64,000 bases of DNA, from NCBI GenBank assembly GCA_963827165.1, contig CAWGZR010000010.1, forward strand, positions 1 through 64,000. Direction: 5' to 3'. Under the pieces are notes generated by a model, which made no database searches, was not told the origin of the DNA, and saw only the letters and a list, made by a program, of their open reading frames with translations. Source of the stretch: Candidatus Bathyarchaeota archaeon. GTDB taxonomy: Archaea; Thermoproteota; Bathyarchaeia; Bathyarchaeales; Bathycorpusculaceae. This document shows positions 46,024 to 51,867 of this stretch, in pieces (the first letter of the stretch is position 1; every line of letters begins with the position of its first letter). Made by a program: the position numbers and the translations under genes.

Positions 46024-46362
46024 GTGATTTTTGTTCGGTATCTTGATCATGTTTTATACAATCGTGCTTCTGCTTTGGTTATGAAGCCTCAAGTTAGGAA
46101 GGCTATTGGCTGGTTGATCTATGAATGCGAGCAATACATTACGCTCACTTGGGACTCCGATGATGAACCGCCTACTCTGCATGGTGGCGATCCGAAAGCA
46201 TCCGGTCTAGTATTGCTTAAATCGGATATTCTTGAGCTAAAGAAGGTACCATTACAAAAAATTTCAGAGTGGCAATTAAATTCTCCAGAGGCTATAAGAA
46301 AAGGTGAGTATGCGTTCCGACCATCGGAGCGAAAAACTCAACAAAGGAGAAAGACAAAATGA
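46024..46362 (+). CDS. hypothetical protein coupled to the integrase
   Basis: ATGA overlap with the integrase start. Confidence 0.6.
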   Translation: MIFVRYLDHVLYNRASALVMKPQVRKAIGWLIYECEQYITLTWDSDDEPPTLHGGDPKASGLVLLKSDILELKKVPLQKISEWQLNSPEAIRKGEYAFRPSERKTQQRRKTK

Positions 46363-47783
46363 CCGATGCCATAACCGTAGCTCCGCTTATTGTAAGAAAC
46401 AGCCAGCTATCCATAGAAGAACTCAAAAAACTACCCTTCAAAATGACAATACAGGACGACATAATTCTCTTTGAATACAGCAAACGTGGCTTCAAACTAA
46501 GAGAACCGGTAACCGTAAATCTTCCGAAAGTCTTGGCCGCCAGAGAAAAAGGTTTAGTCGAATACATCTTCAATGCTTTTCTCTCAGACAGACCAGGACT
46601 ACTCCCATATGTCTTTGACAACCAAAGCCTCCTCAAAGTCTCAAGACACCTACTACGCCACTGCTCAGGGTCACCAAACACATGCCGCAACTACATTGTC
46701 CAAATCAGAAAATATGCCACATGGCTTGGATACAACCCAGACCTTATCATACAAGATACCAAACCAATCGGCGCCATCCCAGACCCCTTAAGAGTTCAAA
46801 GCCATACAGTATACCTAAACGACTACCTAGCAGTGCTACAAGATGACGGATTAAAACCTGGTCCAGTCAACAACTACATCAAAGCAGTCAAAACATTCTA
46901 CCGAATCAACGGAGTAAAAATCGATTTAACAGAGCCTCTCAGTAGACGAGTAACCTATAAAGACAGAGCACCAAAACCAGAAGAACTAGATAAACTACTG
47001 GAAATGGCCAACCTTCGAGACAGAGTTATTGTAACCTGCTTAGCCTTAGGCGCCTTTAGAGAAGAAACACTCTCCAAACTTCAATACAGACACGTCAAAG
47101 AAGACTTAGAAAACAACATAATCCCTATACACGTACACATCGAAGCAGATATTACCAAAGGAAAATACCACGATTACGACACCTTTCTTGGCACTGAAGC
47201 AGCACTTTATGTGAAACTGTACCTGCAAAATAGACGCAAGGGAACCTCAAAAGTACCGCCTGAAAACCTAACAGACGAATCACCCCTAATCCGCGATGCA
47301 ACCAAGAGCAACATCAGAGAAATAACCTCAAAACAAATCCGCCTACGAGTCCACAACCTCTACCTCAAAGCAGGCCTAATTAAAGTAAAAAACGGGCGAA
47401 TGTACGACCTAAGAGTACACAGCTTACGCAAATTCTTCAAAACTCAACTCTTAGCATTAGGCGTCCAACCAGACTACGTCGATTACATGATGGGACACAC
47501 AGTCGATACATACCACGACATCCAAAGCATTGGAATAGACAAACTAAGAAACGTCTACGCCTCATCCGGACTATCCATAAGAAAGAAAACCCAAATCAGC
47601 AAAATCGACACCCTCAAAGAAATGATTAGAGCACTAGGCATGAACCCAGAACAAATGCTAACCAAAGATGCCCTATCACAAGGAGCCGCCACCTACAAAA
47701 ACGCCGAAGAACTCCAAAACTACCAACTCCAGATGCTTAGCCAACAGCTACGGCAATTAATACATCAAGAGGCATCGGTATAA
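46359..47783 (+). CDS. int: archaeal tyrosine integrase
   Basis: AFREETL (R), TKGK (K), HSLRKFF (HxxR), MMGH..TY. Confidence 0.92.
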   Translation: MTDAITVAPLIVRNSQLSIEELKKLPFKMTIQDDIILFEYSKRGFKLREPVTVNLPKVLAAREKGLVEYIFNAFLSDRPGLLPYVFDNQSLLKVSRHLLRHCSGSPNTCRNYIVQIRKYATWLGYNPDLIIQDTKPIGAIPDPLRVQSHTVYLNDYLAVLQDDGLKPGPVNNYIKAVKTFYRINGVKIDLTEPLSRRVTYKDRAPKPEELDKLLEMANLRDRVIVTCLALGAFREETLSKLQYRHVKEDLENNIIPIHVHIEADITKGKYHDYDTFLGTEAALYVKLYLQNRRKGTSKVPPENLTDESPLIRDATKSNIREITSKQIRLRVHNLYLKAGLIKVKNGRMYDLRVHSLRKFFKTQLLALGVQPDYVDYMMGHTVDTYHDIQSIGIDKLRNVYASSGLSIRKKTQISKIDTLKEMIRALGMNPEQMLTKDALSQGAATYKNAEELQNYQLQMLSQQLRQLIHQEASV

Positions 47784-47806
47784 ATGTCCACCAGGTACCG
47801 TGATAA

Positions 47807-47820
47807 CCGTCGGACCCGCC
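47807..47820 (+). mobile_element. candidate att site (tRNA 3'-end-like) closing the element
   Basis: CCGTCGGACCCGCC 23 bp after the int stop; near-copy at 63901-63914 after an int remnant. Confidence 0.5.
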
Positions 47821-47915
47821 TCTGTTTGATTAAGCCCATTTATTTTCTTAATGTTACAGAATTCCGCGGTAGTTACAGCCAAGCCCGCGATTCAAGCCCA
47901 TCCTTTGCTTCTATG

Positions 47916-48572
47916 CTAAGCTTCGTAGGTTGTTGGGTCCGGCACGCCTGCTTCTATGAAGGCTTTTTTACGGTTTACACAAGATTCGCATCGCCCGCAA
48001 TGCTTATCATGGTCACGATAACACGACCATGTGGATTCCAGCGGCACACCCAATTCCGAGGCTTTTTTGATAACATCTGATTTACGCATGTCACTGAAGG
48101 GTGCTTGAATGCTGATTTCTTGGCACGTTCCTAGTCTTGCGGCTTTTTCGAATGCTTGATAGAATTCTCTTCGGCAGTCGGGATAGCAAGGTTCGTCTGA
48201 GCCTTGAGCACCATAAAAAACCTTGTCCGCCCCCACGGCGACGGCGTAGGCAACTGCAGCAGAGAGAAAGATGGCGTTTCTGAATGGCACGATTATGGGT
48301 TGTGTGAACTCTGATGTTATAGGAATGTCTGTATTGCAGAGTGCAGTAACGTCCCCAAAGATGTTCTTGAGGTTAGATAGGTCGATTATTTTTGTTGAGA
48401 CATCTAGCGTTTCAGCGATTTTTTGGGCACTTTCGGTTTCTTTAACTGCGATTTGTCCGTACTTGAAAGTTATAGGGTAAAGTTGATAACCCTCTTTTTT
48501 GGCCCAGTACGCCACAGTAGCGGAGTCTGGTCCACCACTGAGAACAACTACACATTTTGTTTTTTGAGTCAT
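47916..48572 (-). CDS. queC: 7-cyano-7-deazaguanine (preQ0) synthase
   Basis: SGGPDS, YGQ, VPFRNAIFLS, YPDCR, TWSCY..HCGRCESC. Confidence 0.95.
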   Translation of the reverse strand: MTQKTKCVVVLSGGPDSATVAYWAKKEGYQLYPITFKYGQIAVKETESAQKIAETLDVSTKIIDLSNLKNIFGDVTALCNTDIPITSEFTQPIIVPFRNAIFLSAAVAYAVAVGADKVFYGAQGSDEPCYPDCRREFYQAFEKAARLGTCQEISIQAPFSDMRKSDVIKKASELGVPLESTWSCYRDHDKHCGRCESCVNRKKAFIEAGVPDPTTYEA

Positions 48573-48618
48573 GTTTCTTCACTTTTCCTAATTTTCAGTT
48601 CAATGTCTTTGTTTGTTC

Positions 48619-49116
48619 TTAAGTTGAGAACCATTTTTGGAAAACCCCTGTTCTTTTTAGAACTTTAAATAGCGGCCACCCGATGAGCACAGTTGCAACA
48701 GAATTTCCAATTGCTATGTATAATATGGTAATAAGCAGCGGCATTTGGTATAGGTAAGATAACATCCATCCAACGGTTGCGCCTAAAACAGCGGAATAAG
48801 CGAGGCAGGTTCCAATTACAGTATAATCATTTTTTGTTCTTTTGTAAACATAGTAGACTACAAAAGACATGACAAATGAAGGTATCGTGTTCAGCAGGTC
48901 AAGCAAACCGTCGGGCGAGAAAATATTACCTATGAAGACTCCAAGCGTGTGGCCCAAAACGCCAGGTAAACCCAACAGGGGAACTGCAGCAACCATTGAG
49001 TCTGCAATGCGAACTTGAATAGGCCCGTAAGATATGCCGCCCAGAACAATAACGAGCGCTGCATAGAGTGCAGCGTATATGGCAATTAGAGCTAAATCTT
49101 TAGTTTTTATCTTTAT
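48619..49116 (-). CDS. queT: QueT (DUF988/COG4708) queuosine-precursor transporter; apparent ATA start
   Basis: Frame extends past the ORF-track start: IKIKTKDLALIAIYAALYAAL..ISYGPIQVRIADS; GGAG 4 nt before ATA, in-frame stop just upstream. Confidence 0.85.
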   Translation of the reverse strand: MKIKTKDLALIAIYAALYAALVIVLGGISYGPIQVRIADSMVAAVPLLGLPGVLGHTLGVFIGNIFSPDGLLDLLNTIPSFVMSFVVYYVYKRTKNDYTVIGTCLAYSAVLGATVGWMLSYLYQMPLLITILYIAIGNSVATVLIGWPLFKVLKRTGVFQKWFST

Positions 49117-49190
49117 GTTTCTCCCTACTCCCGGGTTTTATTTTGGTTGGCGGAACGGGTAGGAGACTCCACTCACCCGCCAATTGCCTC
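49117..49190 (-). ncRNA. candidate cis-regulatory leader RNA (riboswitch-like) of queT-queC
   Basis: UUGGCGG/CCGCCAA stem, loop contains UCUCCUACCCG complementary to the SD region CGGGAGUAGGGAGA, A-rich linker; TATA-like TTTTTA at 49211-49216. Confidence 0.55.
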
Positions 49191-49541
49191 TTTGAATTTA
49201 TAATCTTGCCTAAAAAGCTTTGGGAAAGTGTTTCCATTTTTCGGTAGGCGGGTGTTTTTAGGCGTTGACTCGTCTCATTGATTCTAGAAACTTTGGGTTT
49301 TACTAGATATGCCGTGACTGGTGGATTTTATCGAGCCGAAAATCTTCCAATATTATACAATGACCCGCGACGCGCTAAAAAGTACTTGGGAGCCTGATAA
49401 AGCGCATGCGGAAATAGCGAATTAGCGAAAGAAGGAGAAGGAAAAAGAATTACTTGAGTGGCTCATCGCACACCGGCAATAGTCAAAAATATAGCCTGAT
49501 AGTTAAAAGAGCTCCTGAAAAGACCGGTAGCAGTTCGGGAT

Positions 49542-50450
49542 TTGGAACTAGAAACAAAGTTTAACTATCAACATGCGAAAAAATTAGGTGATAACATCAT
49601 GAAAGACGAAATTTGTAATGTATTGGATGAGGCAAATTTTTTTGAACAACGAGGATATGATAAAACGTCGTCTCAAATAGTCTCATTAGCTAAGGCAGTT
49701 GAAAATGGCCAGGTCACATCGGTCAAAGGCATCTTGGACGCTGTTATCAAAATTGGCGAAAGCTTCAAACTGGAATTTGAAAACGCCAATCCAACCGGCA
49801 AAGACTACCGACGAAAATGCTACCCTCAGGCGCAACTAATCGTTTTTGCGGGCTTAATGGCTGTTGATAGGGAGCAGACGCCTCCGTCAGATTATTTACT
49901 TGAACTATTAAAGAAAATGAACCAGCGAGACGAATACGTAAACTCCTTAAGTAAATCCCTCGCCGAACTTTTCCAGAAAGAAAATCGAACTTCCGAAGAA
50001 AGCCTGAAAATGTTTAGGGAGGCGTGCTCAATCTATGAGCAAGCTATTGACGGAGTTTTCTCCTCTGCTGTGAAAATCCTCTATTTTCTGATGGAGAAAA
50101 TGGGCGTGGAAATGCCAAAATCAAATGAGACCGGCACAGTTTGGGATGCATGGCATAGTTTCGAAAAAGCTAATGTCGAAATGCCCGTCTTCTTAGAAAG
50201 CTGGCCTGAAAAAAGCTCTATTAGAAATGCAATCGCCAATTCTCAAAATGAATACGACCCAATACTGGATAGAGTTCATTTTGTGTCCAAAGACAATGCA
50301 GGAAAGATTACTTATGAGTCACCTGATAGTATGACTTTTTCCGATTTTTTTGCAATTTGGATGCAAATAGGCGATGCCGTAGATTCTTTAAGATATTCGA
50401 TGCGTCTTTATGGAATCTTCCAGTCTCTTGTGATTGCTTCCAATCCATAG
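49542..50450 (+). CDS. hypothetical helical protein
   Basis: 302-aa open frame. Confidence 0.7.
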   Translation: MELETKFNYQHAKKLGDNIMKDEICNVLDEANFFEQRGYDKTSSQIVSLAKAVENGQVTSVKGILDAVIKIGESFKLEFENANPTGKDYRRKCYPQAQLIVFAGLMAVDREQTPPSDYLLELLKKMNQRDEYVNSLSKSLAELFQKENRTSEESLKMFREACSIYEQAIDGVFSSAVKILYFLMEKMGVEMPKSNETGTVWDAWHSFEKANVEMPVFLESWPEKSSIRNAIANSQNEYDPILDRVHFVSKDNAGKITYESPDSMTFSDFFAIWMQIGDAVDSLRYSMRLYGIFQSLVIASNP

Positions 50451-51205: not shown

Positions 51206-51469
51206 ATGACAGAGCAAATTGAAGACGTCATCAAGGTTTCATCTAAGGGTCAAATCGTGATTCCCCGAGAGATTCGCAAGAAGTTGGGAGTTAAGGGCGG
51301 CGAAAAAATTTTAGTCCTTACTCGTGACGGAGATATAGTTCTTAGAAAAGCTAAGGAACTATCCCTTGACGATTTAGGTGAGAGGATTGACAAAGTAGTC
51401 AAGGAAGAATGCATTGACGTTGATAAGCTTGTGTCTGAGGCAGTTGAGTGGGTAAGAAAGTCAAAGTAG
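51206..51469 (+). CDS. vapB: AbrB-type antitoxin
   Basis: VSSKGQIVIPREIRKKLG. Confidence 0.85.
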   Translation: MTEQIEDVIKVSSKGQIVIPREIRKKLGVKGGEKILVLTRDGDIVLRKAKELSLDDLGERIDKVVKEECIDVDKLVSEAVEWVRKSK

Positions 51470-51867
51470 TCTTCGACACGGACATTTGGATTTCAATCTT
51501 TATGGAAAAGAGGATTAGAGACGAGTTTTCGAGAGTGAAGCAAGATCTTGATGTTTACATCAGTGAAGATATTGGGCTTGAAATATCAAAAGTTTTGCAA
51601 TTTCCAAAAGTGTCAGAAATTCTGAAAAAGACCGGCGTACGTGAAAAGGAGGTCTTACGAATTCTCGCGGCTAACTCTAGGAAGGTTGAGCCTAAGCTGA
51701 AGTTGCATGCCGTGAATGGAGATGCTGAAGATAACAGGATATTAGAATGCACTTGGGCAGCTGAGGCAGATATCATCGTTTCGGGAGATAAGCATCTTCT
51801 AAAACTTGACAGGTTCAAAAAGATTAGAATACTACCGCCCAGAGAGTTTTTTGACAGCTTCACTTAA
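51448..51867 (+). CDS. vapC: PIN-domain toxin
   Basis: VVFDTDIWIS..EDNRILEC..IVSGDKHLL. Confidence 0.9.
   Translation: MGKKVKVVFDTDIWISIFMEKRIRDEFSRVKQDLDVYISEDIGLEISKVLQFPKVSEILKKTGVREKEVLRILAANSRKVEPKLKLHAVNGDAEDNRILECTWAAEADIIVSGDKHLLKLDRFKKIRILPPREFFDSFT

Follow-up and report, generated by a model that had tools for sequence, protein, structure and literature searches.

Riboswitches of the preQ1 family have been assigned to three classes. A 2024 review of this family gives bacterial distributions for all of them, and the word archaea is absent from its accessible text (PMC11625349). According to the same text, preQ1-I forms an H-type pseudoknot of ~34 nt, in which loop 3 is A-rich and the dinucleotide UC or AC stands in front of the 3′ strand of P1, and in bacteria preQ1-II and preQ1-III exert control over queT through the pairing of an anti-Shine-Dalgarno (anti-SD) with a Shine-Dalgarno (SD) sequence (PMC11625349). 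In classes II and III, preQ1 is recognised by one C and one U above a floor formed by a U-A-U triple, as the accessible part of another paper describes (PMC11602147). For archaea, a 2017 survey reports, in its accessible part, few riboswitch classes, TPP and fluoride, both of which are shared with bacteria (PMC5473149). No archaeal preQ or queT riboswitch was found described in the literature searched, a body of texts to which subscription journals largely did not belong. Here we report on the minus-strand leader of the genes queT and queC in a stretch of 64,000 nt from Candidatus Bathyarchaeota archaeon (contig CAWGZR010000010.1 of assembly GCA_963827165.1); this whole stretch is called the window, and its positions serve as coordinates. 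An original prediction, made from the letters of the sequence, had suggested a riboswitch for preQ0, preQ1 or a related base in this leader. The candidate RNA spans positions 49117-49186. Its structure is conserved, its stem and its pairing with the SD covary in other genomes, and it is associated with genes of 7-deazaguanine metabolism. On these comparisons we put the probability at roughly 0.65 that the leader is a ligand-stabilised H-type pseudoknot, acting as a translation-off riboswitch of an undescribed class and sensing preQ0 or a close 7-deazaguanine.

A conserved and covarying leader of queT-queC

The letters of the minus-strand leader matched those quoted in the original prediction exactly, and the elements named there were recovered: a perfect 7-bp stem (P1) closing a loop of 23 nt, an A-rich linker 3′ of the stem and, behind the leader, first queT and then queC, both frames of which were identified by Pfam (PF06177 and PF06508, respectively). 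From 5′ to 3′, the first bases of the loop are GUGAG and the last are UCUCCU-A-CCCG-UU. The tail that follows the linker reads CGGG-AGUA-GGGAGA (49133-49120), then AAC and then AUA, the probable start codon. In RNAduplex, loop and tail paired through CCCG/CGGG and UCUCCU/GGGAGA with -13.3 kcal/mol. The start codon of queT was 93% unpaired in the ensemble of nested folds. In the window no terminator-like U tract is present 3′ of the motif, which makes translational control the simpler reading.

Covariation was determined in three alignments. A5 is a gapless MAFFT alignment of 24 sequences, A6 comprises 98 rows (96 distinct sequences) aligned with R2, a model holding the pseudoknot, and A8 contains 57 sequences found only via protein homology or a covariance model and not by a pattern. 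In A6, 98.8% of the cells pair, compared to 91.9 +/- 0.3% in shuffles and 45-61% in slid controls. Changes on both sides occurred in eight of the 14 pairs, the number of double-change cells amounted to 78 (13.5 +/- 3.2 in shuffles), and the covariation score was 0.231 (0.103 in shuffles). The corresponding values for A8 were 97.8% pairing cells (shuffles, 90.2%; slid controls, 44-60%), 62 double-change cells versus 15.5, and a score of 0.277 versus 0.134. A5 showed 99.1% pairing cells against 93.8% in shuffles; its columns 23/53, a pair of the SD helix, contain CG 18 times and UA six times without any mismatch. The inner pair of P1 is G-C in 81 and C-G in 15 of the 96 distinct sequences, again with 0 mismatches, and the outer pair exists as GC, AU, GU and CG.

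The helix formed by the anti-SD and the SD disclosed changes on both sides in all six pairs in A6 and in five of six in A8, with 97.0-98.2% of the cells pairing. An internal loop separates it from the CCG/CGG helix (P2), whose cells pair in 99.0-99.4%, but whose three pairs hardly vary; one variant seen combines AUCCG with CGGAU (locus L020). Among the variants of loop and tail are CCUCCC/GGGAGG, CCUCCU/AGGAGG, GUCUC/GAGAC, CCACC/GGUGG, UGCCUCC/GGGGGCA, CUUCC/GGAAG and UCCGAC/GUCGGA. Without recourse to an alignment, cognate loop/tail duplexes gave a mean of -16.79 kcal/mol, non-cognate ones of -15.13 kcal/mol (122 distinct combinations from 130 loci), and the cognate mean was attained in 0 of 10000 permutations. 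Both P1 and the predicted pairing of the loop with the SD-bearing 3′ tail, for which a covariation check had been advised, are therefore seen to covary, the latter in A5, A6 and A8. The other fold that had been envisaged for the loop, an extended hairpin of GGGUGAG with CUCCUACCC, found no support: 90.2% of its cells pair versus 89.7% in shuffles, and the G-to-C variants of P1 break it. In the form GGGUG/YACCC, for which 94 of 500 shuffles were equally high, it was dropped as a supported element because covariation was lacking; it may occur as a competing fold.

A protein-level search for QueT in the window's genome and 60 relatives (61 genomes in total) was positive in 51 of them. All 25 close orthologues of the same genus are preceded by the leader, most of whose variation falls in the linker and a single loop segment, and diverged versions exist at two distant QueTs of other families in the order (L026, L027). 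A covariance model holding P1 only (R1) was built from these 27 leaders. In the genome of the window it yielded one strong match (90.7 bits, E 8e-23), whose limits coincide exactly with 49117-49186. Two weak matches in this genome (19.2 and 15.2 bits) were taken as noise, as was L207 (21 bits); L240 (G054:C21:10305-10353, 22.6 bits) is tRNA-like with no QueT behind it and shows the onset of model noise. Across an evenly drawn sample of the class, R1 matched in 95 of 151 genomes and in 53 of 79 genera, mostly once per genome. The conservation of orthologous queT leaders, which the original prediction had proposed as a check, extends across the whole class. In a sample of the phylum, 28 of 151 genomes gave matches, and the 15 genomes outside the class belong to four families (9/15, 3/3 and 2/2 genomes, and one genome in the fourth).

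A scan with a degenerate pattern, covering one genome per prokaryotic species, returned at least 119 stretches. Among the matches listed, 78 of 80 pattern loci were confirmed by R1. Two bacterial pattern matches, in Caulobacteraceae and in a Ruminococcus metagenome-assembled genome (MAG), were not confirmed and are regarded as chance matches; apart from these, the motif, which has a length of 60-70 nt, was seen in archaeal records only among the matches listed. The named records among the matches listed are almost all Bathyarchaeia/Bathyarchaeota, the others being Candidatus Methanomethylicus V1 and V3, a Methanomethylicota MAG and some MAGs labelled Nitrososphaerota. Two further motif records among them bear the unconfirmed labels Promethearchaeota or Promethearchaeati.

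The genes behind the motif were determined at 130 loci, an HMM (hidden Markov model) built from eight Pfam-confirmed QueTs being used for QueT. Directly downstream we found QueT in 115 cases, a membrane protein of ~230 aa in eight, a QueE-like radical-SAM enzyme in four and contig ends in three. QueC comes next on the same strand at 58 of the 130 loci; three of the four QueE-like loci are among them. Even among 32 low-scoring model matches, 31 precede QueT, the remaining one being the tRNA-like false match, and in the four two-copy genomes with both loci readable both copies lie ahead of QueT paralogues. The best NCBIfam matches of the QueE-like enzymes are all QueE models (E 1e-25 to 1e-31, full-length, below the curated cut-offs). 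The position of the motif before these genes ties it to 7-deazaguanine metabolism and not to QueT alone. The ~230-aa membrane protein (L043:1571-2275, L047:809-1498, L049:1568-2266, L117:3871-4569; also L044, L076, L108 and L116) belongs to no Pfam or NCBIfam family and shows no likeness to QueT in BLASTP. In the ESM Atlas, the clusters closest to it bear the name ECF transporter S component (0.94, a lead only), and the ECF-S-like protein is a candidate for a new importer of 7-deazaguanines.

Besides the helices, some unpaired bases are close to invariant. The segment J1 following the 5′ strand of P1 starts in A8 with G (56/57) and U (57/57); the later positions are G (49/57), A (30/57) or G (17/57), and G (43/57). 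Directly 5′ of the 3′ strand of P1 there is always U (57/57), and U was also found one position further 5′ in 51 sequences, so that these two bases are UU in 51, CU in five and AU in one. The linker contains AAA in 56-57 of 57 sequences and, after one variable base, two C in 55. The stricter invariance of unpaired bases in A6 is partly forced by the search pattern. The GU of J1, the UU and the AAA-N-CC flank the P1/P2 junction. It is at this junction that the ligands of small pseudoknot riboswitches sit, and by analogy the near-invariant bases may form a ligand pocket.

The sequences upstream of the leader were also compared. Counted from the GCGG anchor, 120 distinct upstream regions revealed an AT-rich box at -35 to -29 and an A-rich patch at -41 to -38; TATA-like hexamers begin at -36 to -33 in 63 of them. 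The TATA-like TTTTTA noticed in the original prediction, 27 nt from P1 in the window, hence has counterparts at a fixed distance in the orthologues. In archaea, the centre of the TATA box usually lies ~26-27 nt from the transcription start. Applied to TTTTTA, this spacing would place the start just 5′ of the stem, with TTTTTA and a neighbouring AAAG as the putative promoter.

Likeness to the preQ1 riboswitches

A cmscan of positions 48900-49450 (551 nt, both strands, E <= 10) against Rfam 15 gave 0 matches to 4227 families including preQ1-I, -II and -III, which agrees with the earlier statement that the leader does not follow a preQ1 consensus. Seven related loci likewise yielded no preQ1 match in Rfam, but only unrelated ones below the gathering scores. 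The following comparisons refer to the classes as they are portrayed in the accessible text of the review (PMC11625349). Like preQ1-I (RF00522), the archaeal motif is built as an H-type pseudoknot, P1 and the tail pairings covarying and an A-rich linker being present; in both, P1 is short and rich in G+C, the loop 3 that comes after it is A-rich, and the 3′ tail takes part in P2 at the SD or next to it. Both precede queT and que biosynthesis genes, and the archaeal motif presumably acts on translation as class I does. It differs from class I by its size (60-70 nt versus ~34 nt, twice as large), by GUU in place of UC/AC with the specificity C in front of the 3′ strand of P1, and by a long loop 1 with a separate anti-SD helix of 5-8 bp. 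All phyla named for class I are bacterial.

With preQ1-II (RF01054) the motif shares the position upstream of queT (COG4708) and the complete pairing of the SD with an anti-SD, which in class II takes place inside the aptamer; control by this class is translational only. Class II, however, which is restricted to Bacillota, adopts an HLout pseudoknot that comprises P1-P4 and an embedded hairpin, whereas the alignments of the archaeal motif contain no P4-like conserved hairpin or fourth helix, and RF01054 was not matched. preQ1-III (RF02680) is also located upstream of queT, and its loop anti-SD pairs with the tail SD as a second, separate pseudoknot helix. This class comprises ~100 nt and five helices and stems from Ruminococcaceae and metagenomes, whereas the archaeal motif has only P1, P2 and the SD helix and gave no Rfam match. 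Invariant U, A and C, the bases used in the pockets that the accessible part of PMC11602147 describes for preQ1-II/III, are available in the archaeal motif, a resemblance only. As to the TPP and fluoride classes, the likeness consists in a cis-regulatory RNA in an archaeal leader; both are shared with bacteria according to the accessible part of the survey (PMC5473149), whereas the motif was archaeal among the matches listed. In general terms, what we found is a conserved, covarying leader ahead of functionally coherent genes, as is typical of riboswitches.

Since the motif fails the three Rfam models, carries UU instead of the specificity C, has double the size of class I and is less elaborate than classes II and III, we treat it as an RNA that works like the preQ1 riboswitches but is a member of none of the three classes. 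Among the alternatives to our reading, a strongly diverged and enlarged preQ1-I survives best, though it is unlikely. It would be the same H-type pseudoknot with a long insertion in loop 1 that added the anti-SD. The outline of P1, A-rich L3 and P2 with the 3′ tail, common to both as far as the review's accessible text goes, speaks for such a descent, as does a second leader type, in which class I hallmarks are combined with the tail AAAACC(C)GG that is also present in the main motif. The missing Rfam match even at E <= 10, the doubled size and the GUU, present in all but a few members, argue against it; moreover, the second leader is unrecognised by Rfam too.

This second, shorter leader was observed ahead of a paralogous QueT (~33% identity) in six genomes of the genus (L028:1444-1491, L029:1444-1491, L030:1993-2040, L192:157-204, L193:39-86, L194:162-209). 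It reads GGUAG-UUU-CCG-UAUAUAAC-CUACC-UUAAAAAACC(C)GG and is almost invariant. A 5-bp P1 (GGUAG/CUACC) is followed by UUU after its 5′ strand and preceded by AC at its 3′ strand; the loop is A-rich, and the tail reads CC(C)GG. UU after the 5′ strand of P1, AC and an A-rich L3 are hallmarks of preQ1-I in the accessible text of the review (PMC11625349); the leader is too invariant for covariation, and Rfam gave no preQ1 match. R3, a model of this leader, detected one copy in the window's genome on contig C5:863891-863939 (-), corresponding to L209:1501-1549 (49.4 bits). This copy is decayed: P1 and CGG are mutated, only ~30 codons of the N-terminus of the QueT paralogue remain, and the frame then runs into the opposite strand of another gene.

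Proposed mechanism, pathway context and rival readings

We propose that the mRNA starts a few bases 5′ of P1 (GGCGG/CCGCC). The loop closed by P1 would offer the anti-SD and then CCG, and the tail after the A-rich linker CGG and then the SD, so that their pairing would create an H-type pseudoknot burying the ribosome-binding site. As long as the ligand is scarce, P1 would be formed and the tail be free or breathing, which would allow the 30S ribosomal subunit to reach the SD. Abundant ligand would dock at the P1/P2 junction, lock the loop to the tail and bury the SD. Translation of queT-queC, and elsewhere of queE or of the second transporter, would thereby be lowered. Transcription start, ligand, switching direction and pocket are what we infer from the comparisons. 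The ligand would most likely be preQ0, the precursor of archaeosine; preQ0 is favoured as the signal because archaea put it into tRNA, as stated in the accessible part of PMC5372724. Negative feedback of this kind fits genes of uptake and synthesis.

A number of observations weigh against a ligand-stabilised switch or against the figures quoted for it. Compared with shuffles, single-sequence folding of the leader was not exceptional (131 nt, z -0.06; 85 nt, z -0.57). A6 takes 78 of its 98 rows from a pattern fixing GUGAG, CCGUU and AAANCCCG. In A6 and A8, the model that placed the pseudoknot columns already held those very pairs, so that the counts lean to the structure, and the relatedness of the sequences inflates the shuffle statistics. 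The loop/tail duplex is predicted to be stable alone (the -13.3 kcal/mol given above) and could form without a ligand. Six of the 57 diverged members have AA in place of the CGG that serves as partner in P2, and in these the SD helix directly adjoins the junction. J1 varies past its first two bases (GUGAG, GUAGG, GUGGG, GUGGU and others), and the only QueE-like gene of the genus (in genome G016) has no motif upstream. As regards the folding and the fitted columns, the folding z-scores are uninformative, since nested folding is blind to a pseudoknot, and the P1 counts and the gapless A5 are free of the model-fitting bias. That the leader is more than chance follows from conservation and covariation in other genomes, not from a single-sequence fold.

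Somewhat less probable than a diverged preQ1-I, and thus quite unlikely, is a leader bound not by a small molecule but by a protein, a regulator or an enzyme of the pathway, which stabilises or opens the SD-sequestering pseudoknot. The conserved unpaired bases could equally be a protein site, the predicted stability of the pseudoknot without ligand would suit this explanation, and few riboswitch classes have been reported in archaea according to the accessible part of the 2017 survey (PMC5473149). A conserved gene for a candidate protein was nevertheless lacking, as the neighbours are only QueT, QueC, the QueE-like enzyme and the transporter. Furthermore, the combination of P1, A-rich linker and SD-holding tail helix is the architecture of small pseudoknot riboswitches, and bacterial queT is under riboswitch control, both in the accessible text of PMC11625349.

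The ligand of the proposed riboswitch has to be considered in view of the pathway. In the window's genome (94.5% complete) we found an archaeal-type TGT, QueC and a QueD-like PTPS adjoining MptA/FolE2. QueF was not found in it, nor was QueE, for which only generic radical-SAM core matches of <=31.5 bits were obtained; one of the top-scoring among these (C8) is NrdG. A QueE-like match at E <= 1e-15 exists in one of 41 genomes of the genus (G016), which is without a QueT match. The other genomes of the genus keep queT-queC, arcTGT and the QueD-like PTPS. The retention of QueC together with QueT while QueE is missing suggests that a precursor on which QueC has yet to act is salvaged, possibly 7-carboxy-7-deazaguanine (CDG). 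A 2024 paper on transporters of Q precursors does not mention CDG.

CDG is therefore one of the compounds that would replace preQ0 if the riboswitch served another ligand, the others being guanine or another purine and a downstream base related to archaeosine. The 40 of 41 genomes that lack a QueE-like gene yet keep queT-queC are consistent with this idea, as the imported compound may be CDG, and directly before the 3′ strand of P1 the motif has U, not the specificity C that the review's accessible text gives for class I. We consider it improbable, however, because feedback is usually exerted by the product of a pathway and the regulon of QueT, QueC and QueE converges on preQ0; in addition, the linker ends in invariant C residues, and these could pair with a guanine-like face. 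Just as improbable is a ligand-independent role as a constitutive translation damper, a 5′ stabiliser of a membrane-protein mRNA or a thermosensor, the SD being masked by a 16S-like anti-SD. In its favour are the predicted stability of the duplex, the natural complementarity of SD and anti-SD and the fact that no alternative structure is backed by covariation. Yet a simple mask needs neither the 8-10 unpaired positions that are near-invariant across the class nor covariation beyond the SD core (CCUCCU/AGGAGG versus CCUCCC/GGGAGG; UCCGAC/GUCGGA), and the motif is confined, mostly as one copy per genome, to 7-deazaguanine genes including that of the cytoplasmic enzyme QueE.

The locus and what the motif would mean

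The coordinates of the leader elements, the putative promoter and the two genes are compiled in the table. Position 1 of the Pfam QueT profile aligns to residue 7 of the frame that begins one codon after AUA. Since the QueT frame contains no ATG, GTG or TTG ahead of Met 48996, AUA is the sole start candidate at the right place; the closest orthologues of this queT carry AUG there. In orthologues, the start codon lies 4-14 nt 3′ of the SD at 97 of 124 loci by an automatic call. Inspection by eye disclosed near-cognate codons at the start position in about ten loci, among them AUA in L054, L058 and L140, ACG in L119, L120 and L138, and CUG in L098 and L104. L138 with ACG and L085 with AUG both lie ahead of a QueE-like gene. 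The near-cognate codons could be starts that are weak but used, or could indicate gene decay.

Table. Positions of leader elements, putative promoter and genes in the window
Feature	Position	Strand	Basis or remark
Candidate archaeal promoter: B recognition element (BRE)-like A-rich AAAG 49221-49218 and TATA-like TTTTTA 49216-49211	49211..49222	-	comparison of upstream regions; putative function
Predicted transcription start, few bases 5′ of P1	49186..49190	-	TATA spacing
P1 5′ strand UUGGCGG	49177..49183	-	pairs with 49147-49153; core GGCGG/CCGCC covaries
J1 GUGAG, unpaired, conserved	49172..49176	-	base counts in the 57-sequence set
Loop segment UGGAG, variable in length and sequence	49167..49171	-	comparison of orthologues
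Anti-SD UCUCCU	49161..49166	-	pairs with 49120-49125; RNAduplex and covariation
P2 5′ strand CCCG	49156..49159	-	pairs with CGGG 49130-49133; RNAduplex
L2 UU, between P2 and P1 3′ strand	49154..49155	-	conserved in the 57-sequence set
P1 3′ strand CCGCCAA	49147..49153	-	pairs with 49177-49183
A-rich linker L3, end AAAACC	49134..49146	-	conserved AAA and CC; upstream part variable in length
P2 3′ strand CGGG	49130..49133	-	RNAduplex and alignment counts
SD region GGGAGA, 3′ strand of the anti-SD helix	49120..49125	-	RNAduplex and covariation
Probable queT start AUA	49114..49116	-	orthologues have AUG, UUG or GUG at the same place
queT, ECF-type S component	48619..49116	-	Pfam PF06177, E 1.2e-23
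queC, 7-cyano-7-deazaguanine synthase	47916..48572	-	PF06508, E 4.8e-65; TIGR00364, 201.4 bits (cut-off 150.3)

Metatranscriptome contigs from two runs were compared with positions 47800-49500. Three of them, at 48388-48629, 48738-48910 and 48758-48916, agreed with the window with no differences; none covered the leader, and contigs of this kind reveal no start, strand or single transcript. The queT promoter candidate is situated in the intergenic region of ~320 nt between queT and a divergent open reading frame (ORF) of 302 aa without a Pfam family (49542-50450, +). On the other side, the gene of a 474-aa tyrosine recombinase (46359-47783, +; PF00589, E 1.1e-6) converges on queC and ends 133 nt from the end of that gene; it may be the mark of an integrated element beside the queT-queC operon. 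Two small ORFs (87 and 139 aa) overlap each other at 51206-51867 (+); by eye they resemble an AbrB/SpoVT-type antitoxin and a PIN-domain toxin.

Judged from sequence comparison, the chances are about even that the motif constitutes the first riboswitch class exclusive to Archaea and the fourth structural class for 7-deazaguanines, with preQ0 and not preQ1 as its native ligand, widespread in Bathyarchaeia and present in Methanomethylicia, and that in genomes without a QueE-like gene it governs the salvage by queT-queC of a precursor, possibly CDG, for archaeosine. If so, the RNAs recognising 7-deazaguanines would gain a new small fold, and the motif would imply SD-dependent translational control in Bathyarchaeia and provide a first handle on how the supply of the archaeosine precursor is regulated. 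It also raises questions of transport, namely whether QueT and QueC salvage CDG and what the cargo of the ECF-S-like protein is. As Methanomethylicia carry the motif and, according to the accessible part of the literature, have cultured members, tests in living cells may be reachable. Such a class, frequent in a lineage that ranks among the most abundant of the archaea, would demonstrate that archaea have evolved metabolite-sensing RNAs of their own.

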